DNA from: an uncultured Gemmatimonadota bacterium
Lineage (GTDB): Bacteria > JAAXHH01
Assembly: GCA_951812955.1 (NCBI GenBank)
Contig: OX638340.1
Location: forward strand, 672,001-736,000
Direction of reading: 5' to 3'
Length of the DNA: 64,000 nt
The notes under the pieces are model-generated. The model did not search any database and was not told the DNA's origin. It was given only the letters and a program-made list of their open reading frames with translations. Below are positions 8,578-35,929 of the stretch, in pieces. The translations under genes were made by a program, and so were the position numbers. Each line of letters opens with the position of its first letter. Position 1 is the first letter of the stretch.

Positions 8578-8609
8578 GATAGTCAGCCCGGGTCTTGGCT
8601 CAGCTTCCC

Positions 8610-10346
8610 TCAGGCGACGGCCGTCCGGTTCCTGGCAATCCGGTACAGTATCTGGCTCATGGCGCCAAGTCCCAATATGACCAGCAACCCGTTGACAACC
8701 CAGCCGACATAGGGCAGGCTGACCGCGACCAGCACCAGTACCAGTCCAACAGACAACGCCAAAGCCACCGAACGCATGTCCTGCCGCTTCGATCGCAACA
8801 GTGCGGTGCCCAGATAGTGCGCCACGACGATCTTGGACAGGTAAAGTCCCACCGCCCATATAACCACCGTGACCAATCCTACTGGAATACCGATGAGTGT
8901 CACGGCAAACACCGCCGCTGCGACCGGCAGGGTAATGAGGATAACAACCCCGGTGCCGGCGGACACGAGTATCGACCTGAAATCTTCCAGCGGCTGGATT
9001 CTGAAAGCGGGTAGTGCCCAGAACACCAACATGCCCGATATGAATGCCGCGGCCAGCCACAAGACCGAAAACAGGAGCGACCAGAACGACCAGGACGACC
9101 AGAACGACCCGGCCTCCTCCTGGCGCTCTTCGTAAACGTCGATACTTGTCGTGCCCGCCACAGATGAGACGGAGTCCACCAGCAGGTCTTCCTCACTCGG
9201 CAATTCCACGTCGAGGTTGCCGCCGATCGATGCGGACGACTGAATGGCCGCAACACGCCCCGAGAAGGTTACATCCCGCAATACCTTGCCCGATACGGTA
9301 AGCCTGTTGCCGAACACCGTCACATTGCGGCCTACCGAACCGCCCACGTTGATCTGGTCGGCGAAAGCAAAAAGATCGCCTCCGATAGCGGCGTCCCGTC
9401 TCGTTAGAATGGACTTGCCGAACCAGTATACGCTTTGTCCGACCGTATTTCCCATGCGAATCATCTCTCCGAATGCCCCGACTCCGCCTTCGACCTTGCC
9501 TTCAATCTCTATGATCTGCCCGAAAAAGAACGCGTCTCCGTGCACCGAGCCCTGGATATCGATCGATTCCGCGAAGGCGATCAGGTCTCCGGTTACCACC
9601 CCGTCAATACGCACGGTACGACCGAAGGCAACGAAGGTGTCATCGATGACTTCATTGGCTTCAATCGACACACTCTCGCCGGATTTGATCTCGATGGCTT
9701 TCGCCGGCGTGGCTGCTATGAATGCCAGAATCAGGGTGCCAAGTATCACCGGCAACCCAGAGGACCTTTGAAAACTCGCATAAATCAAATAGACAAGCGT
9801 GCCGAGAAGGGCGGTGATTCCGGCGGTTATCATCAGGGATTCCATGATCGATCCTCCTTCGCGAATTAAATAGACACATGAGCTGAACAGCAGGGACAGC
9901 TGACCGGAAACCTGGAGCGGATTGAGCCAGGCCAGTCCCCAGGGCAGCTGAAGTCCGGTAACCAGGTCGAACCCCATCCTCAACAAAAGCGCGGTTCCGA
10001 TGACCAGTCCCATGAGTTGCAGGACCAGTGCCGGGGAAGAGGCCGGGACAGGCACATGAGACGAGGCCGGGACAGGCACATGAGATGAGGCCGGGACAGG
10101 TAACGGAGATGAGGCCGGGACAGGTAACGGCTCAGATTCAGCCAGGAACGCATCTGCGTTACCGATAAACCCGACGAGCGTTTCTCTTTCCACCTGGAAC
10201 GCAAGGACCAGTTCACGGCAACGGGGACAGCGGTCCAGATGTTCGCGCAACAGCTTGGCTTCGGATACGGACAACTCGCCATCGGCGTACATCGCGCAGG
10301 TCAGTTCGGCCGGACAGGACTTGCTACGCACACCTGTATCGGTCAT
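8610..10346 (-). CDS. Anti-sigma factor: N-terminal zf-HC2 zinc finger, PVPASS 8-aa repeats, TM segments, a beta-helical bactofilin/CcmA-like repeat domain and a C-terminal multi-TM region
   Basis: CPxC...CPRCRELV zinc-finger motif. Its start overlaps the stop of the upstream ECF sigma gene (ATGA). Repetitive V-x-G-x-V-x-GD-x-x-FA motifs and hydrophobic stretches are present. Confidence 0.65.
   Translation of the reverse strand: MTDTGVRSKSCPAELTCAMYADGELSVSEAKLLREHLDRCPRCRELVLAFQVERETLVGFIGNADAFLAESEPLPVPASSPLPVPASSHVPVPASSHVPVPASSPALVLQLMGLVIGTALLLRMGFDLVTGLQLPWGLAWLNPLQVSGQLSLLFSSCVYLIREGGSIMESLMITAGITALLGTLVYLIYASFQRSSGLPVILGTLILAFIAATPAKAIEIKSGESVSIEANEVIDDTFVAFGRTVRIDGVVTGDLIAFAESIDIQGSVHGDAFFFGQIIEIEGKVEGGVGAFGEMIRMGNTVGQSVYWFGKSILTRRDAAIGGDLFAFADQINVGGSVGRNVTVFGNRLTVSGKVLRDVTFSGRVAAIQSSASIGGNLDVELPSEEDLLVDSVSSVAGTTSIDVYEERQEEAGSFWSSWSFWSLLFSVLWLAAAFISGMLVFWALPAFRIQPLEDFRSILVSAGTGVVILITLPVAAAVFAVTLIGIPVGLVTVVIWAVGLYLSKIVVAHYLGTALLRSKRQDMRSVALALSVGLVLVLVAVSLPYVGWVVNGLLVILGLGAMSQILYRIARNRTAVA
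10036..10131 (-). repeat. 24-nt in-frame tandem repeat x4 encoding (P/H)(L/V)PVPASS inside the anti-sigma gene
   Basis: ggccgggacagg recurs every 24 nt at 10041, 10065, 10089 and 10113. Confidence 0.75.
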
Positions 10347-10918
10347 AATTCGGCCAGCTCCTTTCTCAATTGCTGCTTGGCGCGGAATAGCAGCGTCGCT
10401 ACCGTATTTCGTTTCAGCCCGAGGGCATTTCCGATTTCGTCGTAGGTAAACTGGTTATAGTAAGCCAGTATGAGCGGCACGCGGTACTTCTCAGGTAGCG
10501 ATTGGACGGCGGACCGCACGCTTTCCCCCTTTTCCGCCTGCACAAGATATTCGAGCGTATCCTCGGACACCCTGGACGGTCCGATCCGATCGAAGCCTGC
10601 GGTTTCGAAGATCCTGGTCTCCGAACTGCTACGCCGCAATCGGTCAAGACAGTGATTGGTCGCTATTTTAAGCAGCCAGTTCAGGCATGACTTCGAGTGA
10701 TCAATCGTCGAACGCTTCTCGTAGGCGCGGACGAAAACTTCATGGGTCGCGTCCTCGGCCTCGTCGGCTGACTTCAACAGATACCTGCAAAGCGCGAGAA
10801 TCCGCCGGGAGTGCTTCCGGTAGCTCTCGTCGAAGTCGTAATCCATCATGGAGGGATTTCCAGCATTCGAATTCACGTCTCTACTACGGATAACCGGACG
10901 AAATAGTTTCATTTCCAT
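10343..10918 (-). CDS. ECF (sigma-70 family, group 4) RNA polymerase sigma factor
   Basis: Region 2 and region 4 features (LLKIATNHCLDRLRR; YDEIGNALGLKRNTVATLLFRAKQQLR) and a 4-nt overlap with the downstream anti-sigma gene. The true start may be the internal MMDYDF. Confidence 0.8.
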   Translation of the reverse strand: MEMKLFRPVIRSRDVNSNAGNPSMMDYDFDESYRKHSRRILALCRYLLKSADEAEDATHEVFVRAYEKRSTIDHSKSCLNWLLKIATNHCLDRLRRSSSETRIFETAGFDRIGPSRVSEDTLEYLVQAEKGESVRSAVQSLPEKYRVPLILAYYNQFTYDEIGNALGLKRNTVATLLFRAKQQLRKELAEL

Positions 10919-11108
10919 GTCCGAAAGGACTGGTACGCCGGCGGCACCGGTGGAATCGAGACATTACAGGTGGGGACCGGACGGGCCGGTGTTGCGCGTT
11001 ACTGCTGATCAGGCAGGGGAGTGGAAGGGAATAAACCGGGTTACAAAAACACATCGTCAGGCCAGGGGAGCCTGGACGTGCAAATACCCTTCAATTACCG
11101 GCTGTTCC

Positions 11109-14010
11109 CTAATCCTCTACAACGACTTTCTCGACCGCCACAGCGCAGTACTTGAACTCGGGGATCTTGCCCTCGGGATCCAGCGCGTCGTTGGTCAGGA
11201 TATTGGCGGCCGCTTCCTTGAAGTGGAAGGGAATGAAAACGTTGCCTTCGGCGACCCGCGTCGAAGCCTTCGACTTCAGCGTGATGGCGCCGCGGCGGGA
11301 GGAGACGACGACCGGTTCGCCGTCGACTACGCCGAGCAGGTCCAGGTCTGCCGGCGTCATCTCGACGAACGCTTCGGGCGCTATGGCATCCAGGGCCTTC
11401 GCCCGGCGGGTCATGGTTCCCGTATGCCAGTGTTGCAGAAGCCGTCCGGTATTCAGGACAAAGGGGAACTCAGCGTCCGGCAGTTCATCGGGCGGCGCGA
11501 AGGATACGGGCATGAATCGCCCCCGTCCGATGGGGAAGGTGTCGCTGAAGAGGATGGGCTCGTCAAGCGGCCATACCACCGTGCTTTGTTCCATCGATTC
11601 ATAGGTGATCCCATTGAATATAGGCGTTAGGCCCACGATCTCCTCCCAGACTTCCTCCGGCCCCCCGTATTCCCATGCGTCTATCGCATCGCCTTGCTCC
11701 ATCCGTATCATCCGGTTGGCCAGATCGATCAGTATATCCCCGTCCAGCCGCGCTTCGCCTGGTGGCTGGATCGCCTGCCTGCCGACCTGGACCATGCGGT
11801 TGGTGTTGACATAGGTGCCTCGTTTCTCGATCGCGGTGGAAGCCGGCAGGACCACGTCGGCGAATTCGGCGGTCTCCGTCAGGAAGATGTCCTGAACGAC
11901 CAGGAAGGACAGGTTCTGCAGGGCTTTTCTTACCTTGTTCATGTTCGGGTCCGACAGGAAGGGATTCTCTCCCATCATGAACATGCCCGCGATGCGTCCA
12001 TCGAGCGCGCCGTGCATGATCTCCACGACGGTCAGTCCATCCGCCGGATCCAGGGCTTTGCCCCATGCGGATTCGAATCGTCTGCGAACTTCCTGGTCCG
12101 TAACAGGCTGATAGCCCGGGTAGTACCGGGGGATCAGTCCCACGTCAGAAGCGCCCTGCACGTTGTTCTGGCCGCGCAGGGGATGCAGCCCGGTGCCGCG
12201 GCGCCCGATATTGCCGGTCATGAGACACAGCGAAATGAGCGCGCGGGCATTGTCGGTGCCCTTGACGTGCTGGCTGATCCCCATGCCCCAGAAGATGATC
12301 GCCCGCTCCGCGCGCCCGTAAACTCGCGCCAGCTCTTCAATCAATTCCGCGGAAACGCCGGTGATCCTGGAGGTCATTTCCGGGTTGTATGAACGCACCG
12401 ATTCGGCGAGTGCTTCGATTTTTTCGGTACGGTCCGCGATGAACGCGTCGTCCTGCAATCCTTCCCGCAGAATTACGTGCATCAATCCGTTGAGTAACGC
12501 GACATCCGTGCCGGGCTTGAACCGCACGTACCGGGTGGCGTGGTCCGCGATGGTGGGCCGACGCGGATCGAGCACGTAGAGCTTGATCCCCTTCTGGGCC
12601 GCCTGTTTCAAGTAGGTGGCGGCAACGGGATGGTTGTCCTCGGTATTGGAGCCGATCACGAAGATCACGTCCGTATCGAGGACTTCCTGGAAGGCGTTCG
12701 ACACGGCCCCGCTTCCGATGGCCTCCGTGAGTGCCGCAACGGAAGACGCGTGGCAGAGACGCGTGCAGTGGTCTACGTTGTTGGTACCGAATACGACACG
12801 GATCAGCTTCTGGAAGAGGTAGGCTTCCTCGTTGGTGACCTTGGCCGAACCGAAGCCGGCCAGGGCGCCCGGTCCGTTCGATTGCTTGATTTCCAGCAGC
12901 TTTCGGGCCGCGAGGTCGAGCGCCTCATCCCATTCGGCTTCCCGGTATACTTCGCGGATGCGGTCGTTCCAGTCCGCGGACCGCAGCGAACGCCTGAATT
13001 CCCGGTAATCCGTAAAATCCGCCGAAAGCGGTTGCTTGGGATAGGCGTCTTCCCTCCTGATGAGCGGTTTCAGGAGCCGCTGCGGATGGTGCGTGTAGTC
13101 GTAGCCATACCTTCCCTTGACACACAGCCTGCCTTCCGTGTGGGTTTCCTCCCGTCCGGTCGCCCTCAGGATCCTGTTGTTTCGAACATGGTACGTGATG
13201 CCACAGCCCACCCCGCAGTAGGGACACAGGGAGTCGATCCGCGTAACGTCCCGTTCATCCCCTTGCGAAACGACATCGCGGGGTACGTGTTGTTCGCGAT
13301 CGGACAGGCAATCCGGGTCTGCGGCCGGTTTCACGGACCCGGGACTGCTCCCGGCCGTATCTACGAGCGGGATGTCGGTCAGAGCCCCGGTGGGACAGGC
13401 GGCCACACATTCACCGCAGGAGACGCAGGAGGACTTCCCCATGGGCAGGTCGTTGTCGAAGGCGATCCGGGTACCGCAGCCCTTGCCGGCACGGCCAATG
13501 ACGTCGTTTACCTGCACGTCGTCGCAGGCGCGGATACAACGGTCGCACAGGATGCAGGCATTGTGCGCCACCGCGATCACCGGCGAGGACACATCCTCAT
13601 GTTGCGTCGGATTCGGCGCCGCCGGGGCAAACCTATCGGGTCGCGCGGCGAGTTGCCTACCCAGACGCGCCAGTTCATCATGCTCGACCGGCTTGCGCCG
13701 TTCCGGCGCCTTCGGCTGTCCGGCCTCCAGCAATTCCACGAGGGTACGGCGGGTGCGCCGGACCCGCTCCGTATCGGTACGCACGACCATGCCCTCTTCC
13801 ACCTGGCGGATGCAAGCCGCCGGCAAGGTCCGGGCGTTTTCCACGTCTACTACGCACACGCGGCATACGGCCACGGGACGCATCCCTGGATCGTGGCAAA
13901 GCGTGGGGATTTCGATACCGGCCGAGCGGGCCGCATCCCAGATCGTGGCGCCTTCCGGCGCGGTTACGCGTCTGCCGTCGAGGGTCAGCGTCACGGAATC
14001 ACTGCGCATC
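11109..14010 (-). CDS. fdhA: Formate dehydrogenase catalytic (alpha) subunit, molybdopterin oxidoreductase with N-terminal 2Fe-2S/4Fe-4S domains; Cys-type with no in-frame TGA
   Basis: N-terminus MRSDSVTLTLDGRRVTAPEGATIWDAA...CHDPG...CRVC followed by multiple Cys clusters and the molybdopterin-binding regions. The longer ORF extending to 14189 reads through the upstream gene's 3' end and is not credible. Confidence 0.8.
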
Positions 14011-15702
14011 GGCACCGCCCGTGGTACGATCGGCCTGGCGATCGGCCTGAGGATCGGCCTGGCGATCCGCCGCTTGCCGACAGAGGATCTCGAACTCTTC
14101 CGGGAAATGCCGGCGGGCGGAGGTAAGCGGAAGTGCCGCAGCCTGGCCGAGCCCGCATATGGACGATAGCTCCATCGCTTCTGCAACATCCTTTACGGGT
14201 GCCAGCATGTCGGGCCGCCCGTTGCCTTCAAGTACCTTTTCCAATAGCTGAACGAGATGCTCCGTACCGGTCCGGCAGGGCACGCACTTTCCGCAGGATT
14301 CGTTGCGAAAGAACGTTACCGCGTTCAAGGCTAGATCCACCATGTTTGTGCCCTCGGCCAGAACGATGACCGCACCGGACCCCAGCATGGACCCGGCGTC
14401 CGCGAGGGGCTTGAAGTCAAGCGGGATATCCGCCATGGAAGCTGGAAGGAAACCCGACGACGTGCCTCCCGGAGAAAAGGCCTTCAGCTTGCGACCGTCG
14501 GAAACGCCGCCCCCCTCGTTATCAATGAGATCGCGAACCCGCGTTCCGAGGGGGATTTCGTACACGCCGGGCCGGTTGACATGCCCGCTGAGGGCGATGT
14601 ACTTGCGTCCCGCCGCGCCGTTTATCCCCTGGCTTCTGAACCATTCGGCGCCGCGACGCAAAATGGCGGGCACCCAGGCGAACGTCTCCACATTGTTGAT
14701 GAGCGTGGGCCTGCCGTGTAGCCCGTGCGTACCCGGGAACGGCGGCTTGTTCCGGGGTTCTGCACGTTTGCCTTCCATTGCTTCCAGCAGAGCCGTCTCC
14801 TCGCCGCAGATATAACCGCCCGGACTGTCGAAGATCTCAAGGTGAAACGAATGTTCCGAATTGAACACGCCGTCGCCCAGGTATCCCGCGGAGTAGAACG
14901 CCCTGATGGTCTTCTCCAGCACTTCCCGTTCCCGTTCGTATTCATGGCGAAGGTAAAGGTATCCCTGATTTGCCCCGACCACGAGACCACCCAGGATCAG
15001 CCCTTCGACGACGAGATGGGGATAGTGGTACAGGATCTCGCGGTCCTTGAACGTGCCGGGTTCGCTCTCGTCCGCATTGCAGATCGCGTACTTGTCCTCG
15101 GATTCGGCCTTTCGGACCAGATCCCACTTCACCCCCGTCGGGAACCCGGCTCCGCCCATGCCGCACAGCCCGCTGTCCTTGATTACCTGCAGAATCCGGT
15201 CCGAGTTGCCGTCCGAAACCCACGCTTTTAACGATTCGGCGGCCAGTGGATGGCCATAGGGATCAATAAGCCCGGGGCTGGCACGCCGCCGGGTGGGCTG
15301 CCGGGCGACCCTTCCGTCCTCGGCCAACCGGGCGACGAAATTGCTAAGACGGTCCGGTGACATGGAACGGTAACTGAGATCGTTGATCGAGACCGCCGGC
15401 GCCCCATCGCACTGTCCAAGGCAGGAAACTCCGGTTACCTCCCAGTTTTCAAGCCCGGCATAATCCACGGTTTCCCGCAGGGTCTCCAGCAGGTCACAGG
15501 CGCCGTGGAGGTGGCACGTGAGGTCGGTACAGACGCGCAGCGTAGCCACCGGGGGAGGCTCAAGTCTGAAGTGAGGGTAGAAGCTGGCCACGCCATGGGC
15601 TTCGTAGAGGGGAATGCCCTTCCGCTCCGACAGGGATTTCAGTTCATCTTCAGGCAGATAGCCGTGGCGCGCCTGTATCTCCTTCAGATCATCTATCAGC
15701 AT
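13999..15702 (-). CDS. NuoE-like thioredoxin-fold 2Fe-2S domain fused to NuoF-like NAD/FMN/4Fe-4S flavoprotein (formate dehydrogenase beta/gamma fusion)
   Basis: N-terminal VCTDLTCHLHGA...CLGQCDGAP (NuoE 2Fe-2S) followed by the GMGGAGFPTG and ESCGKCVPCR motifs of the 51-kDa NuoF family. The 12-nt overlap with fdhA start suggests translational coupling. Confidence 0.8.
   Translation of the reverse strand: MLIDDLKEIQARHGYLPEDELKSLSERKGIPLYEAHGVASFYPHFRLEPPPVATLRVCTDLTCHLHGACDLLETLRETVDYAGLENWEVTGVSCLGQCDGAPAVSINDLSYRSMSPDRLSNFVARLAEDGRVARQPTRRRASPGLIDPYGHPLAAESLKAWVSDGNSDRILQVIKDSGLCGMGGAGFPTGVKWDLVRKAESEDKYAICNADESEPGTFKDREILYHYPHLVVEGLILGGLVVGANQGYLYLRHEYEREREVLEKTIRAFYSAGYLGDGVFNSEHSFHLEIFDSPGGYICGEETALLEAMEGKRAEPRNKPPFPGTHGLHGRPTLINNVETFAWVPAILRRGAEWFRSQGINGAAGRKYIALSGHVNRPGVYEIPLGTRVRDLIDNEGGGVSDGRKLKAFSPGGTSSGFLPASMADIPLDFKPLADAGSMLGSGAVIVLAEGTNMVDLALNAVTFFRNESCGKCVPCRTGTEHLVQLLEKVLEGNGRPDMLAPVKDVAEAMELSSICGLGQAAALPLTSARRHFPEEFEILCRQAADRQADPQADRQADRTTGGADAQ
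14028..14075 (-). repeat. 12-nt tandem repeat (gatcggcctggc/gag, about 3.5 copies) encoding a DRQA/DPQA repeat tail at the C-terminus of the NuoEF-like protein
   Basis: Read directly from the sequence. Confidence 0.7.
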
Positions 15703-15725
15703 GTAACTGGTCCGGTATGATTCGG

Positions 15726-16493
15726 TTACGAGGCGAGTTGGCGTATCGAGGTCGTCCAGCCCGAGTCGTCGATATCGACGATCCGGAACGCGGCCGGTTC
15801 GTCCGTAGCAATGACACGGGTGCCGTCCGCTCTGATTACGGGGTCCTTGCGAAACTGCAGTCCCACGCTCGGTGCGGTCAGGACGGTTGCATGGTCGAGT
15901 TCAATGCAGAAGTCGTGGTGCACGTGACCGCACAGGATCAGTCGTAACGAGGGGTGGGCATTGCATATTCGGAGAAAACGGCCGCTTTCCTGCAGTATCA
16001 ACTCATCCATCCAGGCGACGCCCACGGGTACGGGCGGGTGATGCATGCAGATGACGGCGGGCGGATTGGTAGACAACCCACGCTCCAGCCAGTCCAGCTG
16101 AACGTCGTTCAGCCTGCCCGCCACCTCCCCTTCGTCCTGCGTATCGAGCACGATAACCCGTTGGCCGGCCCGCTCCAGCGCGTAGTAGTAAGGGGCCGAA
16201 TTCGCAACGGACTCTTCCAGCATGATCCGGCGGAAGACCGGTCTGTAATCGTGATTGCCTATAGCCATGTGACAGGGAAAACGAAGGTAAGAAAGAACGT
16301 CCTTGATCGCCCGGTAGGAGTCTTCGGATCCGTCGTTTATTTGATCGCCCGTCATGACGACGAGATCGGGCGAGGGACTCAGCACGTTGACCGCATCAAT
16401 GGCGGCCCGAAGCCGTCCCAGCGTGTCCTGGCCGTGGACGGGCTGCCGGTCCGCCGGCACGATATGGGGATCGGAAAGCTGAACGATGCGCAT
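15726..16493 (-). CDS. Metallophosphoesterase (calcineurin-like; CpdA-type phosphodiesterase)
   Basis: DPH...GDQ...GNHD...GHVH metallophosphatase motifs in order. Confidence 0.75.
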   Translation of the reverse strand: MRIVQLSDPHIVPADRQPVHGQDTLGRLRAAIDAVNVLSPSPDLVVMTGDQINDGSEDSYRAIKDVLSYLRFPCHMAIGNHDYRPVFRRIMLEESVANSAPYYYALERAGQRVIVLDTQDEGEVAGRLNDVQLDWLERGLSTNPPAVICMHHPPVPVGVAWMDELILQESGRFLRICNAHPSLRLILCGHVHHDFCIELDHATVLTAPSVGLQFRKDPVIRADGTRVIATDEPAAFRIVDIDDSGWTTSIRQLAS

Positions 16494-16496
16494 GAA

Positions 16497-17993
16497 TCAG
16501 GGTTTCCAATCTCTAACCAGCTGAACGAGCAGGCGAACCCCCACTCCTGTAGCGCCTTTAGGGCAATAGGACTTGCTCGACTCCGTGTAGGCCGTTCCCG
16601 CGATGTCCAGGTGCACCCAGGGACGCTCGATGAATTTCTCCAGAAAGGCGCCGGCGGTCAGTGCGCCGCCCCATCGACCGCCCGTGTTTTTCACGTCGGC
16701 GATATGGCTCTTGATCTGGTCGTGGTAATCCTTCCAGATTGGCAGGGGCCAGACTCGCTCGCCCGTCGTCTCTCCAGCCTTGCGTACCCGTTCCTGCAAA
16801 GGCTCGTCATTGCCCATCATCCCCGATGCCGCGTGGCCGAGGGCGACCACACATGCGCCGGTCAACGTGGCCAGGTCGATCACCGCCGCCGGACTGAATC
16901 GTTCCGCGTACCCCAGGGCGTCGGCCAGGACGAGGCGCCCCTCGGCGTCGGTGTTGATGACTTCGATCGTCTTCCCCGAAAGGGCCGTGATGATGTCGCC
17001 TGGTTTCAAAGCCTTGCCGTCCGGGAGGTTTTCGGTGGCGGGAACGAGCCCCACCACGTGAAGGGGTGGTTTCAACATGGCGATAGACTGCATGGCGCCG
17101 ATTACGGCCGCCGCGCCCGACATGTCGTGTTTCATTTCTTCCATGCCGCCGCTTGACTTGATGGAAATGCCCCCGCTATCGAAGGTGATGCCCTTCCCAA
17201 CGAAAACCAGGGTATCCCGGTCTTCGGAAGGTTCTCCGTACTCCAGAACAATGAATCGGGGGGGTTCCTCACTGCCCGCATTGACTGCGACCAAAGCGCC
17301 CATGCGTTCTTTTTCAATGTCCTTACGGGTAAGGACTCGGCATTTAAGATCGGAATCAGCGGCCATTTTTCGGGCGGCCGAAGCCAACTTGCGCGGTGGT
17401 AGCGCATTCCCTGGGGCGTTGGAGAGGTCGCGTGCCAGCGCCGTTCCCGCGGCGGTTATCCGCGCGGTTTCGATTCCGTCCCGGACCTCATTGGCTTGTG
17501 CGCGCTGCTGTATCACGACCGTCAGGTTCTCGAGCCTGGTTCGCTCGGGACCGGCGGACTTGTGGCAATCATATCGGTATTCGCCCAGTAACAGTCCTTC
17601 CACGGTGGCTTGTGTGCATTCCTGCAGTTCAAAGTCCGGTACGTCCAGTCCATGCACGGCCGTCGAAAGTTCAGAGACGCCGAGTTTAAGCGCCCGTTTG
17701 ACCGCTATGCCCGATGCGCGCCGGGCCGTTTCCAGACAGAAGTCGTTTCGTGGTCCGAGCCCCAGGAGGATAACCCTTCCGGGCGGCGCCTGGCCGCACG
17801 GATACAGCACCGCGACTTCCTGTTCATCGCCCTTGAAATCACCCAACTTCAGCATGCCATGCAGATAACGGCGCAGGGCGCTCTCCATGACCATGGAATC
17901 GGTCTCCTCGAGCTGATCGCCCTTGAAGAGCCCGATGATTACGTTGGTGTCGATTTCCGATCCGATTCGACCGATTTTCACGTCTATTTGCAT
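16497..17993 (-). CDS. pepA: Leucyl aminopeptidase (M17)
   Basis: NTDAEGRLVLADAL signature; about 500 aa. Confidence 0.9.
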   Translation of the reverse strand: MQIDVKIGRIGSEIDTNVIIGLFKGDQLEETDSMVMESALRRYLHGMLKLGDFKGDEQEVAVLYPCGQAPPGRVILLGLGPRNDFCLETARRASGIAVKRALKLGVSELSTAVHGLDVPDFELQECTQATVEGLLLGEYRYDCHKSAGPERTRLENLTVVIQQRAQANEVRDGIETARITAAGTALARDLSNAPGNALPPRKLASAARKMAADSDLKCRVLTRKDIEKERMGALVAVNAGSEEPPRFIVLEYGEPSEDRDTLVFVGKGITFDSGGISIKSSGGMEEMKHDMSGAAAVIGAMQSIAMLKPPLHVVGLVPATENLPDGKALKPGDIITALSGKTIEVINTDAEGRLVLADALGYAERFSPAAVIDLATLTGACVVALGHAASGMMGNDEPLQERVRKAGETTGERVWPLPIWKDYHDQIKSHIADVKNTGGRWGGALTAGAFLEKFIERPWVHLDIAGTAYTESSKSYCPKGATGVGVRLLVQLVRDWKP

Positions 17994-21030: not shown

Positions 21031-22092
21031 CTACCGTTGCGACAGGCGCCGCACGATGTCATCGCCCACATCGACGGTACGCGACGTGCCACCGATATCG
21101 GGCGTGCGGATCCTGGCCTCGCCGAGGTTTTCCGCCACGGCTTTTCGTATGGCCGATCCGGCTTCCGCCTGGCCCAGGAACTCGACCATCATAGCCGCCG
21201 CCAGGATCGTGGCGATGGGGTTGACCTGGCTCTTACCGATCAGTTCGAAGGCCGAACCGTGGACCGGTTCGAACATGGAGGGATGTAAACGTTCGGGGTT
21301 CAGGTTCGCGCTGGGGGCCAGTCCCATGCTGCCAATGGTAATCGCCGAGATATCGGTCAGGATGTCGCCGAAAAGGTTCGAGGCCACCACTACGTCGAAA
21401 TCCTGCGGCCTGCGCACGAAATCCATGGCCGCCGCGTCGATCAGGAGGGATTCGGTCTCGATATCTTCGTATTCCTGCTTCACGTTATCGAACACCTCGT
21501 CCCAGAATACCATGCCGTGACCCTGGGCATTCGACTTCGTAATGGACGTGACCCTGCGCCTTCCTCCGCGCCGCCGCGCTTCTTCGAATGCATACCGGAT
21601 AATCCGTTCCGTGCCGTGCCGGGTGAAAACAGAAGTCTGGACTGCGACCTCCTGGTCGGTCTGGTGATACACGCGGCCCCCAATGTCGGCGTATTCCCCT
21701 TCTGTGTTCTCACGGACGACCACCAGGTCAATGTCCCCGGGTCCCTGGTCCGCCAGGGGGGACCGAACCCCTTCGTACAAATAAGCGGGCCGGACACAGG
21801 CGTACTGGTCGAACCTGCGGCGAATGGGTAGGATCAGGTTGTTCAGGGTAATGTGATCCTGGACTTCCTCATCGCCGACCGCACCGAAGAAAATCGCGTC
21901 GAAAGCAGCCAGTTCATCCAGGCCGTCTTCCGGAATAAACCTGCCCGTACGTTTGTAGCGGTTGGAACTCCAGTCGAACCGGGTAAAACGGAAAGCCGGT
22001 TCGCCCAGCGCTTCGAGCGTCTTTATGCCTTCCTCGATGACTTCGGGGCCTACACCGTCCCCGGCGATCACGGCAATTTCGAAATTTGTCAT
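21031..22092 (-). CDS. Tartrate dehydrogenase / 3-isopropylmalate dehydrogenase family NAD-dependent decarboxylating dehydrogenase
   Basis: MTNFEIAVIAGDGVGPEV N-terminus and NLFGDILTD motif. The upstream 130-codon extension of the listed ORF overlaps the neighbouring gene and is rejected. Confidence 0.8.
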   Translation of the reverse strand: MTNFEIAVIAGDGVGPEVIEEGIKTLEALGEPAFRFTRFDWSSNRYKRTGRFIPEDGLDELAAFDAIFFGAVGDEEVQDHITLNNLILPIRRRFDQYACVRPAYLYEGVRSPLADQGPGDIDLVVVRENTEGEYADIGGRVYHQTDQEVAVQTSVFTRHGTERIIRYAFEEARRRGGRRRVTSITKSNAQGHGMVFWDEVFDNVKQEYEDIETESLLIDAAAMDFVRRPQDFDVVVASNLFGDILTDISAITIGSMGLAPSANLNPERLHPSMFEPVHGSAFELIGKSQVNPIATILAAAMMVEFLGQAEAGSAIRKAVAENLGEARIRTPDIGGTSRTVDVGDDIVRRLSQR

Positions 22093-22637
22093 GTTTTGAT
22101 GGTACAATCGTCGCAGATCCACGCGGCCCGTGTCATCCCACCCACCGGGATTTCCGTATCGTAGTCCTGCATTACCGGCACCCGAGTTCTTCCACAGAAG
22201 TCGCATTTGCCCGTCCGCTTGCCTGGCGGGCTTTCCGCCCGTTTCATGGCGACCACATCGCTTTCCCGGTACGGATCCGCGAAACGTCGTGCGAATCCGA
22301 GCACCTGTCGATCCGTTTCTGTTTGCAACGCTCGCCTGACAATGGGTTCGAAGGCGGGATCGGTGGGACAACCTCCGTCTTCCAGCGTATGCCACGCCCG
22401 GCGGCGGACACGGGCGTCCTCGTCCTCCATCATGCGGTAGATCGCCTTCCAGACTTCTTCGTTGCGGTGACGGACGTGGCACGGACACATGTAGGTCGCC
22501 GCCACGATCCGTTCCTCGGGATCCGTGCTCTGGGACAGGCGCAGGAGTTCGGCGATATCTTCCCTGCTCACGCGTTCCTCGCCCGGTTTTCGCCAGGCCT
22601 TCTGATGTCTGTTAAGGCCGGTGTTTCGTTTTGCCAT
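22089..22637 (-). CDS. HEAT-like repeat (PBS-lyase type) protein with a C-terminal Cys4 zinc-ribbon
   Basis: Repeated Arg/Ala-rich helical repeats (ERIVAATYMCPC...; ARVRRRAWHTLEDGG; PIVRRALQTETDRQ) then CDFCG...CDDC. Its stop overlaps the dehydrogenase start (ATGA). Confidence 0.5.
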   Translation of the reverse strand: MAKRNTGLNRHQKAWRKPGEERVSREDIAELLRLSQSTDPEERIVAATYMCPCHVRHRNEEVWKAIYRMMEDEDARVRRRAWHTLEDGGCPTDPAFEPIVRRALQTETDRQVLGFARRFADPYRESDVVAMKRAESPPGKRTGKCDFCGRTRVPVMQDYDTEIPVGGMTRAAWICDDCTIKT

Positions 22638-23726: not shown

Positions 23727-24614
23727 ATGGTGTTATTTGTTGAAGCGGGAAGGGCTGGACGGTGTACATTACTGCGTCCCAGCCGTACCTACAGGTGGCG
23801 CAAACAGCAAACACAGAAAGCGTACCGAGTGACCTACTTGATCCGGACCGCCGTCGTCATGCTCTTGTTGACCGTCATGATCGCCGTGGCTCTGCCAACG
23901 GCCCGTGGACAACGTACGCCCGATTCTCCCGTAACGAGCTGGCGCAAACTCGAAACGCGGATGACAGACAATTGCGCCCTCTGTCACCAGCGCCTGGGCG
24001 AACCCCTCGCCAAACAGGTCGCGCAATGGCAGGGGAGCATCCATGCGTGGCGCGGAGTTTTCTGCGACACGTGCCACGGGGGCGATCCCACCAGCACCAT
24101 CCTCACCGTGGCCATGGGCGAGCAGAATGGGTTCATGGACGCGCCGCTGCCCGAGGCCATACCCGATGACTGCGGACGCTGTCACCCGGAAGCGCTGGAA
24201 AGCTTCTGGGAAAGCGCCCACGGGGACCTGTTCGAGGCCAATGACTTCGAACCCGGATGCGTCACCTGCCACGACAGTCACGACGTGAAGGAAGTGCATA
24301 TCGACATGGTATCGATCACCGCGCCTTGCGGCGAATGCCACGACCAGGACTATATCGACGAGGTCCGCAACCCCCTGGTCGACACGGACGGAAGATTAGA
24401 ACGGCTCTACGGCCAGATCCTGGCGATGCCAGGGGACAACCCCAACGCGCCCTACCTCCGCAACCGTCTCATCCGCGTCCGCAAGCAGTTCCGTGGCCTG
24501 GCCCACTACCTGGCCACCAACACCATTGTCACCAAGCGGCAGGCTATCGACCGGGAACTCGACTACATCGAATTCATGCTGCATTTCGATGACAACACCG
24601 TCGAAGGCAAGTAG
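23727..24614 (+). CDS. Membrane-anchored or secreted pentaheme c-type cytochrome
   Basis: Five CxxCH motifs (CALCH, CDTCH, CGRCH, CVTCH, CGECH) and a signal/anchor-like segment MLLLTVMIAVALPTARG. The probable true start is GTG 23831 or ATG 23859. Confidence 0.75.
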   Translation: MVLFVEAGRAGRCTLLRPSRTYRWRKQQTQKAYRVTYLIRTAVVMLLLTVMIAVALPTARGQRTPDSPVTSWRKLETRMTDNCALCHQRLGEPLAKQVAQWQGSIHAWRGVFCDTCHGGDPTSTILTVAMGEQNGFMDAPLPEAIPDDCGRCHPEALESFWESAHGDLFEANDFEPGCVTCHDSHDVKEVHIDMVSITAPCGECHDQDYIDEVRNPLVDTDGRLERLYGQILAMPGDNPNAPYLRNRLIRVRKQFRGLAHYLATNTIVTKRQAIDRELDYIEFMLHFDDNTVEGK

Positions 24615-24722: not shown

Positions 24723-24746
24723 TGACAGGCTTTGCGAGGTAAGGTT

Positions 24747-24819
24747 GCCGAGGTAGCTCAGGCGGTAGAGCAGTGGACTGAAAATCCATGTGTCGACAGT
24801 TCGACTCTGTCCCTCGGCA
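24747..24819 (+). tRNA. tRNA-Phe (anticodon GAA)
   Basis: GCCGAGGTAGCTCAGGCGGTAGAGCAGTGGACTGAAAATCCATGTGTCGACAGTTCGACTCTGTCCCTCGGCA folds as a cloverleaf: a 7-bp acceptor stem GCCGAGG/CCTCGGC, an AGCTCAG D-loop, a CTGAAAA anticodon loop and a GTTCGACTC T-loop. CCA is not encoded. Confidence 0.9.
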
Positions 24820-25302
24820 TTTCATTTCATATTCAAATAGTCGACTGTCGTGGCAATCTTGGCCCGTGTATCCCACGCCGAGGCGCCAGCAGCTTTAGAA
24901 AGCTCAGGCGCGCCACCAAAGCCACCGCTGCCTGGAAATCCTGGGATGGCCCCAGCCACCCCCGATGTGCTGGCACGGATTGCATCCCCATCGTACCTCC
25001 CGTCCGTTCTTCCATACTGCCACTGGTATTTCCGCGGACAACCGCCTGCATGCTGCATCATCCCGCAGACCGGTTACCTCGAAATCACAGCCTGTTTGAC
25101 AACGGCGCCGCCCGGTCGATAGGCGGCAAAAAGCGAGGCGGCCGCGTCGGCTCGAAATGCGAAGCACAATTCTTTCGCAACGTTTCAGGTAAACCAGGGG
25201 TCAAACAACAGATCGCCATAATCAAGCAAATGACAACAGACACAAACCAGTTCATCCGCTGACGCTCCAAGACACCCATTTCCCTGAACCCAAGGCGCAA
25301 TC

Positions 25303-27723: not shown

Positions 27724-27902
27724 GCCGTCGGCGCCCCGCTTGGATTTCTGGTTTGACGACCTCCCCTTGCAACTGTAGATTCCATCGTCTCGAAGGTATA
27801 AAGTGCGGGCAAGCATCACCGTAACTTCATGCGACCATTAAGTCGCGCATCGCGGCGCATCGCGCAGATCTGCCGTGCCGCCCGGGAAAGACAGCGCTGA
27901 TC

Positions 27903-29834
27903 GTGGCTACTAAAAACTATGCCTCGCTGCCTTACACCGAACCGGACAACCTCGTCCGGGATTTCGCCAGTCGCGGCATCGTCGCCCTGCCGCCTGAAAG
28001 CCTGGGCATCCCCGAAGAAATCCATCATCGCATATACACCCTGGAAAAGCAGGCCTACCTGGCGAGAAAGCCCGTAACACCGGGCGGCATGCCGGACGTC
28101 CTGAAGGTCATCAACGCCCCGGGCGTGGTTGAAGCCTGCAACCGCATCGTGGGACGAAACTGGGCCATCGTCCCTTTCACACACAACGCCTCATTCGCGA
28201 GCGGCGCGCGGGACCAGCACTGGCACAAGGACGACAACGGCCCCTACAACGGCCGCAAGCAACGCCATCACCAGGCTGTGCAGATCGAAATGCTGTACTA
28301 TCCCCAGGACGTGAGCGAAGTCATGGGGCCGACGGCCACCATCCCCTACTCCCATTACTGGACGTTCAATCACGAAGAGAACCATGATAATTTCGCGGGG
28401 GCCGATCACCTCGATTTCGAGTACCAGATCAGCGGGATGGAAGGCGTCCCGGTCAGCGGTCCCGACTCCGAATACGACTGGGAGGAAGTCGTCCAACGGC
28501 GCACGGCCCACGACGTCCGCATGCGGGAAGCGGTGACCAATACGGGATGGCCCCTCGTGAGACCCTACGAGGCCGCGCCGCTACGGGCGGGAAGCGTGCT
28601 GCTTTACTCCCACAACACGTTCCACAGGGGAAATCACAGGCGCGACGACTGGAAACTGTGGGACAGCCATCCGCGCTTCATGTGGCGATTCTGGATCTAC
28701 CGAACTACCGAACCGGCCATACGCGATGGCGATGATCCCGGGGAAACCGCCTGGCGAAGCCTCGGCGCGGACCCCTTGACCGGTGTTGACCTGCGGTCGG
28801 CCGATGACGACGTGACGGTTGTCTGGCGCTACCACAACTACTGGATGCAGACCGGGAAAACACCCCCGCCGAGACCCGAAGCCGATTCGCAATCCATTGC
28901 GGGACGGAAATCCGAGGCACGGAATCTAAACGCGCAGTTGCACGCCATGGGCGACGAGTCGGAACCTCTCCGTATCGGCGCGGCCTACAAGCTCGCTTCG
29001 ATCGGGGACGACGCACTGGCGGTAAAGCACCTCGGCGAGGCGTTGTACAGTCATAGGGAAAGCGTACGCCGGGCGGCGACTTACGGCCTGATCGCCACTG
29101 GAGAGCAGGCCACGGCGACCTTCATCGAAGCGACGAAGTCACCGGTCAAATGGGTCAGAAAGGCCGGCGTATACGGACTGGGCGACTGCGCGCCGCTCAC
29201 CGACGAAGTACTGGCATCCGCAACTTCGCTCCTCCACGGTGATCCGTCCGTCTACGTCCGTGCTGTAGCCGCCGGAACACTGGGCTGCCTGGGACGGCGC
29301 GCCGCGGGAACGGGTATCGGAACGACCCTGATTCCCCGATGCCTCGCTGCGCTAGTACGCAGCATCGAGCGCGAAGAGAACCGGCTGAGCATGGACCTTG
29401 CGCAGCAGCGTAGCATCAAGTTCGCGCGACCCACCGACGCGTGCGACGTCTGCGAAGGCAACGGAGTCGACATGGGCCTGGACCGGTTCGAACCGGTACG
29501 CTCGGCGGTTCGGGAAAACGCCTTGTGGTCCATGGTCATCCTTTGTTCCCATGGAACTTACCTGGCGGACGATGCCCTGGTTTCCACCATCGAAGCCTTG
29601 AAAATGGTGGTGCGCAACGATAAAAACGTCATCTGCGTAGGATTCGCAATGGACGCCCTCAATCGCCTGGCGAACCTGGAAACCACCGGACCCACGCCGG
29701 CCGCGCTCGACAGACTGCGTGCAGACCTGCTGCAGATTCTCGGCGAATCCCCCATACGGTGCTGGGAAGCGCTCGTTCGGGGCGGACTGAGTACGGAGTT
29801 CCTGGCCGCGTTCTCCGAATCCGAAGCCGGATAG
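27903..29834 (+). CDS. Fusion protein: N-terminal PhyH-family Fe(II)/2-oxoglutarate dioxygenase domain plus C-terminal HEAT-like repeat domain
   Basis: N-terminal domain carries ...ASGARDQHWHKDD... (H-x-D) and ...IPYSHY... (distal His). The C-terminal roughly 300 aa contains repeated helical motifs of the PBS-lyase HEAT type (VRRAATYGLIATGEQA; VRKAGVYGLGDCAP; VRAVAAGTLGCLG). Starts on GTG. Confidence 0.6.
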   Translation: MATKNYASLPYTEPDNLVRDFASRGIVALPPESLGIPEEIHHRIYTLEKQAYLARKPVTPGGMPDVLKVINAPGVVEACNRIVGRNWAIVPFTHNASFASGARDQHWHKDDNGPYNGRKQRHHQAVQIEMLYYPQDVSEVMGPTATIPYSHYWTFNHEENHDNFAGADHLDFEYQISGMEGVPVSGPDSEYDWEEVVQRRTAHDVRMREAVTNTGWPLVRPYEAAPLRAGSVLLYSHNTFHRGNHRRDDWKLWDSHPRFMWRFWIYRTTEPAIRDGDDPGETAWRSLGADPLTGVDLRSADDDVTVVWRYHNYWMQTGKTPPPRPEADSQSIAGRKSEARNLNAQLHAMGDESEPLRIGAAYKLASIGDDALAVKHLGEALYSHRESVRRAATYGLIATGEQATATFIEATKSPVKWVRKAGVYGLGDCAPLTDEVLASATSLLHGDPSVYVRAVAAGTLGCLGRRAAGTGIGTTLIPRCLAALVRSIEREENRLSMDLAQQRSIKFARPTDACDVCEGNGVDMGLDRFEPVRSAVRENALWSMVILCSHGTYLADDALVSTIEALKMVVRNDKNVICVGFAMDALNRLANLETTGPTPAALDRLRADLLQILGESPIRCWEALVRGGLSTEFLAAFSESEAG

Positions 29835-33953: not shown

Positions 33954-34772
33954 ATGATGACCCCGGAACAAAGGTACCTGTTCGATGTTTTTGGATACCT
34001 GCACATTGAAAATGCGCTTTCAAAAGAGGAACTCACGGCCTGCCAGCGAGCTTCGGCCCGATACATGAACACGCCGGAAGACAGGCTCCCGCCCGGATTC
34101 GGATTCGACGGCAAACGCCATCTCCATGGGTTCGCCTTCGACAAGTCGCTGGAAGCCCTGACCCGCCATGCGTCGATCTGGCCCATCGTCCGGGAACTCA
34201 CCAACGACAAGCCACGGTTGATCAGCGGCACCCTCCAGGTGGACCGTCCCGGCGAATCGGCCGTGGGCGGACTCCACTGCGCCAGGGAGGGATTCGGATG
34301 GGAGAGCACCCGGTACGAGACGCATCACGGAAGGGTCTATTGCGACGACATCATCGTGTTTCCCTATCTGGACGACGTATTGCCCGGCGACGGCGGCCTG
34401 ATCGTCCTGCCCGGATCCCACAAGGCCAATTTCCCGCGGCCGGAGCACCTTTTCAACAACGGGCTCATGCACGGTGTGGAGGACCTCGCGCCCGGCGTGG
34501 TCAACATCACGCCCAGGGCGGGTGACATCATCGTGACCTCGGAGCTCATGACCCACGGCATCCTGGAATGGCGGCCCAGGGACCGCATCCGGCGTATCGT
34601 CGTGCTGCGTTACAAACCCCAGCACGCCGGGCTCGCGACGCCGTTTCCCGATGAGATTAAGGCCGTGCTTTCTCCCGAAACTCGGGAACTGATCGAGACG
34701 GCCCACTACAACCATGTCAAGGAAATCGTGAAGGACGACCCGGACGGCAGCCCGAAAAGGGCGATTTCATGA
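33954..34772 (+). CDS. PhyH-family Fe(II)/2-oxoglutarate oxygenase with an atypical first metal-ligand motif H-C-A (His-x-Ala) in place of H-x-D/E
   Basis: ...PGESAVGGLHCAREGFGW... aligns to the PhyH '...G...WHQD' block, and ...GGLIVLPGSHK... matches the distal-His block. I verified the codons directly: cac tgc gcc = H C A. Confidence 0.7.
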   Translation: MMTPEQRYLFDVFGYLHIENALSKEELTACQRASARYMNTPEDRLPPGFGFDGKRHLHGFAFDKSLEALTRHASIWPIVRELTNDKPRLISGTLQVDRPGESAVGGLHCAREGFGWESTRYETHHGRVYCDDIIVFPYLDDVLPGDGGLIVLPGSHKANFPRPEHLFNNGLMHGVEDLAPGVVNITPRAGDIIVTSELMTHGILEWRPRDRIRRIVVLRYKPQHAGLATPFPDEIKAVLSPETRELIETAHYNHVKEIVKDDPDGSPKRAIS

Positions 34773-35929
34773 ACATCAGGGATATCCGCGCCTTCACCGT
34801 GGACCTGTCTCGTGCCAGGAAAGCGGTCAAATCCTCGCTGCAAAGGAAAGGCCGCCAACCTGCCGGCCCCATGGATCGATACCCTGACTACCGGGGCAGT
34901 CGTTCGGCCGCGGGACCCTCCTGGCCAAGCGCGGCGTGCATTGTCGAAGCTGATGACGGATCTTTCGGCCTGGGTATCACCCAGCAGAGCGGCCCGGTCC
35001 TTCCCATCATCAACGATCACTTCCGGTCGCTGCTGGCGGGTCAGCCCGTCATGGCAACGGAGAAGTGCTACGACCTCATGGTCCGCGCGAGCGCCGCGTA
35101 CGGAAGCCAGGGCGCGGCCGGTTTCGCCATCAGCGCGGTGGATCTTGCGCTCTGGGACCTGAAAGGCAAGCTACTCGGCAGGCCGGTGTACGAGTTGCTG
35201 GGCGGTCCACAGAAGAAACACATCGACTGCTACGCCACGGGATTCGATATCGAATGGTACCTCGAGCTGGGGTTCAAGGCGGTTAAACTGCCTATGCCTT
35301 ACGGCCCCGACGACGGGATCGACGGACTGAACCGGGCCGATGAAATGGTTGCCGAAACGCGGGCGACGATCGGCGACGATATCGAATTGATGCTCGATTG
35401 CTGGATGGCGCTTGACGTGGAATACGCCGTTAGGTTGGGCGAGACGCTGAGACCCTATCGGTTGAAGTGGCTGGAGGATTACCTGATGCCCCACGACCTG
35501 GGCGGATTCGCGGCCGTCCGGCGTCGCTTACCTGCACAGGGTCTGGCCACGGGAGAACACTGGTACCTGGCGGAACCGTTCCTGTATGCCGCTGAACACC
35601 GGCTGGTGGATATCTTTCAACCGGATATCAAGTGGTGCGGCGGGATGTCCGCCGCGGTCCGCATCTGCCACATCGCCGAGGCCGCCGGGTTGACCGCCGC
35701 ACCGCATGGCGCCATGAACGATCCCTATGGACAACACCTGGTGTTCGCCATGCCCGCGGCAAGGTGGGGCGAAAGGTCAAGCGGAGTCTCCCCGCCCGGG
35801 GTACCCCTCGCGGAGATGGTTGAACTGCCGGGAACGGCCGTTATCGAAGACGGCTGTTTGACGCCCAGTGACGCTCCGGGTTTCGGGATCGAGGTGGACC
35901 AGGCATGGCTGGACCGCTTTGCCGTATGA
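34769..35929 (+). CDS. Enolase-superfamily enzyme (mandelate racemase / muconate lactonizing enzyme subgroup; dehydratase or epimerase)
   Basis: ...DLALWDLKGK..., metal-ligand acidic residues in ...LMLDCWMALD... / ...KWLEDYL..., and DIKWCGG. Its start overlaps the previous stop (ATGA). Confidence 0.8.
   Translation: MNIRDIRAFTVDLSRARKAVKSSLQRKGRQPAGPMDRYPDYRGSRSAAGPSWPSAACIVEADDGSFGLGITQQSGPVLPIINDHFRSLLAGQPVMATEKCYDLMVRASAAYGSQGAAGFAISAVDLALWDLKGKLLGRPVYELLGGPQKKHIDCYATGFDIEWYLELGFKAVKLPMPYGPDDGIDGLNRADEMVAETRATIGDDIELMLDCWMALDVEYAVRLGETLRPYRLKWLEDYLMPHDLGGFAAVRRRLPAQGLATGEHWYLAEPFLYAAEHRLVDIFQPDIKWCGGMSAAVRICHIAEAAGLTAAPHGAMNDPYGQHLVFAMPAARWGERSSGVSPPGVPLAEMVELPGTAVIEDGCLTPSDAPGFGIEVDQAWLDRFAV

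Follow-up and report, generated by a model that had tools for sequence, protein, structure and literature searches.

The window analysed here, a stretch of 64,000 nucleotides (contig OX638340.1 of assembly GCA_951812955.1, positions 672,001 to 736,000), comes from a metagenome-assembled genome (MAG) of Gemmatimonadota and contains a gene that joins, within one reading frame, a PhyH-class oxygenase domain to a solenoid of HEAT repeats. Both domains are well known and the novelty lies in their fusion in an uncharacterised family. We tentatively propose, with a probability of roughly 0.45, that this PhyH-HEAT protein is an autonomous cytosolic oxygenase whose substrate is a small or oligomeric metabolite, possibly derived from carbohydrate, and that the HEAT repeats together with a conserved loop inserted between them would aid substrate binding or assembly. 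The analysis establishes the intact gene, its two domains, the strict conservation of its catalytic residues, the fold class to which the oxygenase domain belongs, the distribution across phyla and the lack of a conserved operon; the activity, the role of R258, the contribution of the HEAT repeats and the loop, and the kind of substrate are proposals.

A single gene encodes both domains

The open reading frame (ORF) of the fusion has no internal stop in the ORF list of the window, and its product exceeds the cut-offs of three Pfam models. PhyH (PF05721) scores 26.2 bits against a gathering cut-off of 22 over amino acids (aa) 77-243, a marginal match but one that recurs in many homologs. HEAT_2 (PF13646) scores 38.7 bits against 27.7 and matches three stretches, the best at aa 375-460, while HEAT (PF02985) matches the C-terminal half with 30.6 bits against a cut-off of 23.5. 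A preliminary description made from the letters alone had recognised the fusion and suggested a domain search that included the PBS-lyase model PF03130 in addition to PF05721 and PF13646; the latter two do match, whereas PF03130 is not matched by the fusion protein at E <= 1 in the Pfam scan. NCBIfam holds no specific model for the protein, and the Pfam and NCBIfam scans detected no DNA-binding, kinase or cyclase output domain in it.

A search of 5.8 billion proteins yielded over 675 homologs of full length. The top 120 have 618-677 aa and are 66-100% identical at a query coverage of 95-100%, and the only names they carry are 'phytanoyl-CoA dioxygenase family protein', 'HEAT repeat domain-containing protein' and 'hypothetical protein'. 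Two ORFs separated by an unseen stop or frameshift, or a C-terminal half without a match to a repeat family, had been named as outcomes that would refute the fusion, and neither was seen. With an uninterrupted ORF, single-protein homologs from independent assemblies and phyla that span 97-100% of the query, both domains above their Pfam cut-offs and a linker that can be aligned in every sequence of a 41-member alignment, an unseen frameshift, an assembly error or a chance ORF is practically excluded as the origin of the fusion, which is a real single gene with both domains in one protein. The features of this gene and of its surroundings are collected in Table 1.

Table 1. Positions of the fusion gene, its parts and other features; all positions are those of the window except in the last row
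Feature	Position	Strand	Remarks
Weak sigma-70-like promoter match	27753..27781	+	within the 179-bp upstream intergenic region; not statistically significant
PhyH-HEAT fusion ORF	27903..29834	+	643 aa; GTG start; stop codon 29832-29834; ORF list, Pfam, homologs
N-terminal Fe(II)/2-oxoglutarate oxygenase domain, PhyH class (predicted activity)	27903..28712	+	aa 1-270; double-stranded beta-helix core about aa 61-270
H108-K109-D110, predicted proximal His and Asp of the 2-His-1-carboxylate iron triad	28224..28232	+	in DQHWHKDD; invariant in alignments A1, A2 and A3
H241 (predicted distal iron-binding His) and R242	28623..28628	+	invariant in A1, A2 and A3
R258, candidate 2-oxoglutarate C5-carboxylate-binding Arg	28674..28676	+	invariant in A1, A2 and A3; starts strand PRFMWRF
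Linker	28713..28907	+	aa 271-335; long helix 302-317; least conserved internal segment; secondary structure from models
HEAT solenoid, first block	28908..29384	+	aa 336-494; repeats with LRIGAAYKL, VRRAATYGL, VRKAGVYGL, VRAVAAGTLG
Conserved loop between HEAT repeats	29385..29501	+	aa 495-533; R509-P-T-D-x-C514-D515-x-C517-E518-G519; C517 at 29451-29453
HEAT solenoid, second block, and C-terminal helices	29502..29831	+	aa 534-643; model helices 535-639; invariant columns
Stand-alone 272-aa PhyH paralog	33954..34772	+	Pfam; orthologs confined to Gemmatimonadota; loosely linked
Enolase-superfamily dehydratase, most like L-rhamnonate dehydratase	34769..35929	+	Pfam; PDB 2oz3/2i5q; family loosely linked (14 of 38 lineages within 10 kb), copies not orthologous across phyla
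Small HEAT/zinc-ribbon-like protein	22089..22637	-	182 aa; HEAT_2 28.8 bits vs 27.7; C-terminal CDFC...CDDC
tRNA-Phe (GAA)	24746-24820	+	Rfam 69.3 bits; ARAGORN
SpoU/TrmH-type genes at sister-family loci	L087 8606-9433; L088 8650-9453; L089 8689-9342; L093 3954-4733; L104 5271-6047		

Catalytic residues of the oxygenase domain

Conservation was followed in three alignments, one of 14 sequences reaching down to 24% identity (A1), one of 41 members of the tight family formed by the closest full-length homologs (A2), and one of 21 N-terminal domains that also includes a sister family of shorter PhyH-HEAT proteins (A3). Invariant in all three are D104, Q105, H108, D110, H123, Y133-P134-Q135, P143-T144, Y152-W153, G230, H241, R242, R258 and R267. 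The H-x-D...H motifs that had been noticed in the N-terminal part correspond to H108-K-D110...H241, and they are unchanged even in relatives that are only about 25% identical, including the sister family at 25-30% identity. By homology to the PhyH family, H108, D110 and H241 are the predicted iron ligands. R258, invariant like R242 and R267, opens a strand (residues 258/259 to 266/267) that the models place after the distal histidine, and judging from the equivalent arginine position in the PhyH family it would be the natural candidate for binding the C5 carboxylate of 2-oxoglutarate.

The N-terminal domain has the double-stranded beta-helix fold of the PhyH subclass. The PDB relatives found with its profile are all remote, with ectoine hydroxylase at E = 0.002 followed by FtmOx1, the leucine hydroxylase GriE and PHYHD1, and the conserved segments at about aa 99-120 and 143-173 are modelled at low confidence. 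Taken from its sequence, the domain is apparently an oxygenase of the PhyH class with the full set of catalytic residues, from which we infer its activity.

The HEAT solenoid and its conserved loop

The C-terminal repeat motifs quoted in the preliminary description are present at aa 388, 418 and 452, with spacings of 30 and 34 residues, and this half of the protein is made of tandem helical hairpins of about 30 aa that fit the PF13646/PF02985 profiles. It matches alphaRep proteins (names as deposited) in the PDB with E = 5e-15, in alignments that span the quoted motifs; among natural proteins, E. coli YibA and CpcF, a subunit of a bilin lyase, match the solenoid best. A full-length model (predicted template modelling score, pTM, 0.83; mean predicted local distance difference test score, pLDDT, 75.8) shows a confident helical solenoid at about aa 332-639, broken by a low-confidence stretch at 495-526; for the loop, aa 495-533, the pLDDT is 32-44.

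Despite being modelled as flexible, this loop is conserved nearly as well as the catalytic core. In the 32 sequences that share less than 75% identity with the protein of the window, the cross-phylum identity is 79% in the catalytic core (aa 61-270), 49% in the linker (aa 271-335), 68% in the first HEAT block (aa 336-494), 75% in the loop and 64% in the second HEAT block (aa 534-600), which opens with an invariant R533-S-A-V-R-E-N539. D515, C517, E518 and G519 are present in all sequences of the 640-aa type, including those that are 37-47% identical. In the tight family C462, C480, C514, C517, C548 and H550 are all conserved, but only C517 is kept in the full-length relatives at 37-47% identity; a Cys4-type or other multi-cysteine metal site in the HEAT domain is not supported because the remaining conserved cysteines and the histidine vanish in divergent members. 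There is no 'HE' dipeptide in aa 336-643, and H550 is the sole conserved histidine of the HEAT domain.

Distribution of the family and of its sister family

In an exhaustive search of 50%-identity representatives the tight family corresponds to approximately one cluster (P0121), accompanied by a few full-length relatives at about 40-48% identity. More distant proteins of about 520-600 aa match query residues 60-470, carry PhyH and HEAT_2, and make up a sizeable family of their own with greater divergence. A survey of the phylogenetic distribution, as had been suggested at the outset, was carried out with one genome per species and located the tight family in 207 species-level genomes from at least seven phyla, about 0.1% of the species. 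All 207 are uncultured MAGs, labelled as Gemmatimonadota, Latescibacterota, Poribacteria, Planctomycetota, Opitutales, Chloroflexota (Caldilineales), Handelsmanbacteria, Zixibacteria and Gammaproteobacteria. Judging from isolate names and general background on these groups, sponges, corals, the deep ocean and deep lakes are presumably the source of many carriers.

Any two members of the tight family are 56-100% identical (median 68%), and a protein often has its nearest relative in another phylum: Opitutales and Planctomycetota proteins reach 77% as compared to 69% within Opitutales, and Planctomycetota and Poribacteria proteins 77.6% as compared to 68% within Planctomycetota. Since the closest relatives so frequently belong to other phyla, the pattern suggests that the gene has spread horizontally while under strong constraint. 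In NCBI records the labels 'Gemmatimonadetes' and 'Candidatus Latescibacterota' are used inconsistently, as copies that are 94-96% identical and syntenic are labelled differently (loci L007-L086), and the case for horizontal transfer has to rest on the other phyla because these MAG labels are unreliable. One Opitutales MAG (L027) contains three fusion paralogs within 9 kb (7896-9866, 10058-11905 and 14666-16612) that are 71-79% identical to each other, with a gene of the MR_MLE family among these tandem copies that starts 28 bp past one of them.

The sister family (e.g. P0227, P0273 and P0286) consists of proteins of about 530 aa, found mostly in gammaproteobacterial-type MAGs. It has the same order of PhyH followed by HEAT, identical invariant catalytic residues and a homologous loop. 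However, this loop is shorter and free of cysteine (EPDN...RSTVRE) where the window protein has C517, the proteins are about 110 residues shorter and lack the C-terminal helices, and the members diverge far more from one another (37-47% identity to P0227) than those of the tight family. It is likewise uncharacterised and likewise without a conserved operon, no cluster of neighbouring genes being present in more than 8 of the 49 sister loci. A gene for a SpoU/TrmH-type RNA 2'-O-methyltransferase lies directly downstream, on the same strand, in all three sister genomes of one sublineage, and a metagenome scan found one downstream in 2 of 30 further sister loci with enough sequence on that side. 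We have dropped this adjacency as a clue at the level of the family, as it concerns about 5 of the 49 sister loci and never occurs beside the tight family. In the sublineage concerned a ThuA-like gene is often found near the SpoU/TrmH-type gene, and the products of the latter at loci L087 and L088 carry an MRM3-like RNA-binding domain.

Genomic neighbourhood

In the window the fusion gene is preceded by a MacB/FtsX permease gene and followed by genes for an ABC ATPase, two ABC-2 permeases, a DUF218 protein, a stand-alone PhyH protein of 272 aa and a dehydratase. No terminator was predicted between the fusion gene and the downstream ABC genes. Upstream, one sigma-70-like site was found where 0.5 would be expected from shuffled sequences, and Rfam detected no riboswitch or other RNA element, its sole match in the window being a tRNA elsewhere. 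The gene order of the window is kept only within one Gemmatimonadota lineage.

To place these neighbours in context, the ORFs of 87 loci were clustered all-against-all and the loci dereplicated to 38 groups at 78% identity of the fusion protein. Only two neighbouring families span many of the 38 groups, namely small PhyH proteins, encoded within 10 kb of the fusion gene in 22 groups and within 3 kb in 15, and MR_MLE proteins, encoded within 10 kb in 14 groups. Their density drops away from the fusion gene, from 0.62 to 0.12 per 10 kb for PhyH and from 0.35 to 0.09 for MR_MLE. The Pfam families most often met among the 141 ORFs obtained by taking the two nearest on each side in the 38 groups are PhyH (9), GFO/Idh/MocA (5), sulfatase (4), and MR_MLE, beta-lactamase and GNAT (3 each). 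A conserved operon can be rejected, as no partner is shared across the 38 lineages and the paralogs represented by the PhyH and MR_MLE neighbours differ between phyla. The fusion gene rather tends toward catabolic islands of carbohydrate or sugar-acid flavour, without a fixed partner.

In the window, the sole PDB relative of the 272-aa PhyH protein is the sugar-modifying enzyme HygX (4xc9/4xcb). The dehydratase scores 266 bits with its NCBIfam model, below the equivalog cut-off of 393 bits, and because its gene overlaps the stop of the PhyH gene by 4 bp the two are probably translationally coupled. Together they may constitute an uncharacterised oxygenase-dependent sugar-acid pathway. A different arrangement occurs in two large genomes, one of them labelled Latescibacterota (L002 and L003), in which a small gene of the glyoxalase/VOC family (9626-9970 and 9319-9684, respectively) directly precedes the fusion gene in the same orientation, and TauD, further PhyH, GNAT and methyltransferase genes follow downstream. 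The VOC-fusion arrangement may be a lineage-specific operon.

Proposed function and alternatives

In the reaction that we envisage, H108, D110 and H241 would hold the iron and R258 would anchor 2-oxoglutarate, whose oxidative decarboxylation should generate a ferryl species able to hydroxylate or otherwise oxidise a C-H bond of the substrate. The approximately seven HEAT repeats of the PBS type would be a fixed part of the enzyme, and the solenoid with its D-x-C517-E-G loop would most likely cap or extend the substrate pocket or hold an oligomer together. The substrate itself would most likely be a small or oligomeric metabolite taken from the environment, plausibly derived from carbohydrate, and the gene a self-sufficient catabolic module disseminated by horizontal transfer among marine and lake bacteria and those associated with sponges.

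Several observations weigh against this proposal. HEAT solenoids are best known as binders of proteins or nucleic acids, and identities of 64-68% in the HEAT blocks and 75% in the loop across phyla exceed what a passive scaffold would need. The active-site loops have low model confidence. As for the gene context, there is no conserved operon partner, 142 Pfam families being represented among the 141 flanking ORFs, and the recurrent neighbours are not orthologous across phyla, with 23-32% identity to the window copies where the fusion protein itself retains 63-70%. Moreover, part of the PhyH enrichment around the gene is background because PhyH paralogs are vastly expanded in some phyla and make up over 1.9% of the genes in Poribacteria (PMC3909097).

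The preliminary description had suggested a protein-substrate hydroxylase. Its oxygenase-HEAT fusion stands, but for the substrate we prefer a small metabolite and retain a macromolecule as the main, though on the whole doubtful, alternative, in which the solenoid would recognise a conserved protein or RNA and present a residue or nucleotide to the oxygenase site. It is general knowledge that HEAT/ARM solenoids commonly bind proteins or nucleic acids, the identity of 64-79% across phyla over the whole protein, including solenoid and loop, is what would be expected for a conserved partner, and a stand-alone gene without a metabolic operon is common among modification enzymes; the SpoU/TrmH-type gene in one sister sublineage would also agree with it, even though this adjacency is rare in the sister family and absent from the tight family. 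On the other hand, the catalytic fold is nearest to PhyH enzymes acting on small molecules and not to PHD/P4H, JmjC/FIH or OGFOD1, there is no His-Glu site like that of deoxyhypusine hydroxylase, and no recurrent partner gene, whether for translation, the ribosome or anything else, was found across the 38 lineages. A gene that only about 0.1% of species genomes carry, whose phylogeny crosses phyla and which is tandemly triplicated in one genome, would also be unusual for an enzyme that modifies a universal macromolecule. A bolder version, which we regard as unlikely, holds that a PhyH oxygenase, from a class whose substrates are otherwise known to be small molecules or tethered to carriers, recruited the HEAT repeats and the cysteine loop to hold a macromolecule such as a protein, an RNA or a polysaccharide, so that a new class of bacterial macromolecule hydroxylases would be moving by horizontal transfer between bacteria associated with sponges and those of deep water.

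The identity of the solved structural relatives is the one observation that suggests a tailoring oxygenase of natural-product synthesis, with the HEAT repeats docking onto a carrier protein or partner enzyme; gene context gives this no support and we consider it improbable. Very improbable is a sensor of O2, 2-oxoglutarate or iron, or a regulator that modifies itself, with the loop serving as pseudo-substrate or redox switch. A loop that is conserved like the catalytic core yet modelled as flexible, an invariant cysteine flanked by acidic residues and the autonomy of the gene would suit such a role, but the protein has no output domain, no conserved regulator adjoins it, the loop of the sister family is without the cysteine, and the idea is pure inference that no structure supports.

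Returning to the metabolite oxygenase, the fusion family is far more conserved than the genes that neighbour it, and a specific, strongly selected activity is therefore implied. The family is large and confined to uncultured bacteria of the kind that dominate sponge microbiomes and also occur in deep-ocean and lake water. Identification of the substrate would show what one of the PhyH oxygenases does in these phyla, where they have undergone a huge and unexplained expansion, and should also reveal what HEAT repeats contribute to a 2-oxoglutarate oxygenase. Should the substrate be a macromolecule after all, the protein would represent a new kind of bacterial modification enzyme.

Other features of the window

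The second HEAT protein with a zinc ribbon that had been pointed out in the window is real, with its HEAT_2 match and its CDFC...CDDC motif, and we can add that it is encoded on the minus strand and has a CPCH motif in its first HEAT repeat. A functional link to the fusion gene is rejected, as the two accompany each other in one syntenic Gemmatimonadota lineage only (13 loci, 1 of the 38 identity groups). The ORF for an isocitrate/isopropylmalate dehydrogenase overlaps this gene as listed (21031..22488), and its 5' end is probably over-extended because the Pfam domain begins at residue 138. An ORF of 176 aa (24732..25262) without a Pfam match overlaps the tRNA-Phe gene and is probably not a real gene. 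Between a gene of the fumarylacetoacetate-hydrolase family and the tRNA-Phe lies a multihaem c-type cytochrome gene (23727-24614, plus strand; Cytochrome_C7/c3-like, with paired CXXCH motifs).

Comparison with known systems

The architecture is already present in databases under generic names, and no member of the family has been characterised in the searchable literature. This agrees with the earlier impression that it was not known to have been studied: the searchable full-text literature contains nothing on a PhyH-HEAT architecture, and none of the PDB matches is a solved structure spanning both domains. A component of anti-phage defence was considered and rejected, as PADLOC gave only weak generic repeat matches (HEAT-ARM_XIII, 19.1 bits; HEAT_CxxC_PDDEXK, 17.3 bits).

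Among PBS-type HEAT proteins, alphaRep, E. coli YibA and CpcE/CpcF are stand-alone scaffolds or bilin lyases, whereas the solenoid described here is fused to an oxygenase and interrupted by a conserved loop of 39 residues with the D-x-C-E-G motif. A phycobilisome lyase of the CpcE/F type is ruled out by the missing PF03130 match and by the gene context, no phycobiliprotein gene being present in the window neighbourhood or the homolog loci. Deoxyhypusine hydroxylase, with which the protein had been compared, is likewise an oxygen-dependent hydroxylase containing HEAT repeats, if the activity predicted for the fusion protein is correct. Its repeats carry the metal site themselves by means of His-Glu motifs and it has no 2-oxoglutarate domain, while catalysis by the fusion protein would reside in the separate PhyH domain. 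The comparison and the di-iron site that it would entail are excluded, since there is no His-Glu motif in the HEAT domain. PHD2/P4H, FIH and OGFOD1/Tpa1 have the superfamily fold and chemistry in common with the fusion protein, and OGFOD1/Tpa1 also possess an extra domain, but the fold comparison places the catalytic domain outside the PHD/P4H, JmjC/FIH and OGFOD1/Tpa1 structural subclasses. The known systems of its own class are ectoine hydroxylase EctD, kanamycin B dioxygenase KanJ and the orthosomycin oxygenases EvdMO1, EvdO1, EvdO2, AviO1 and HygX. The fusion protein is 9-16% identical to these enzymes in structural alignments, and differs from them by the long conserved insertions in the catalytic domain described above and by its permanent fusion to a HEAT solenoid of about 300 aa.

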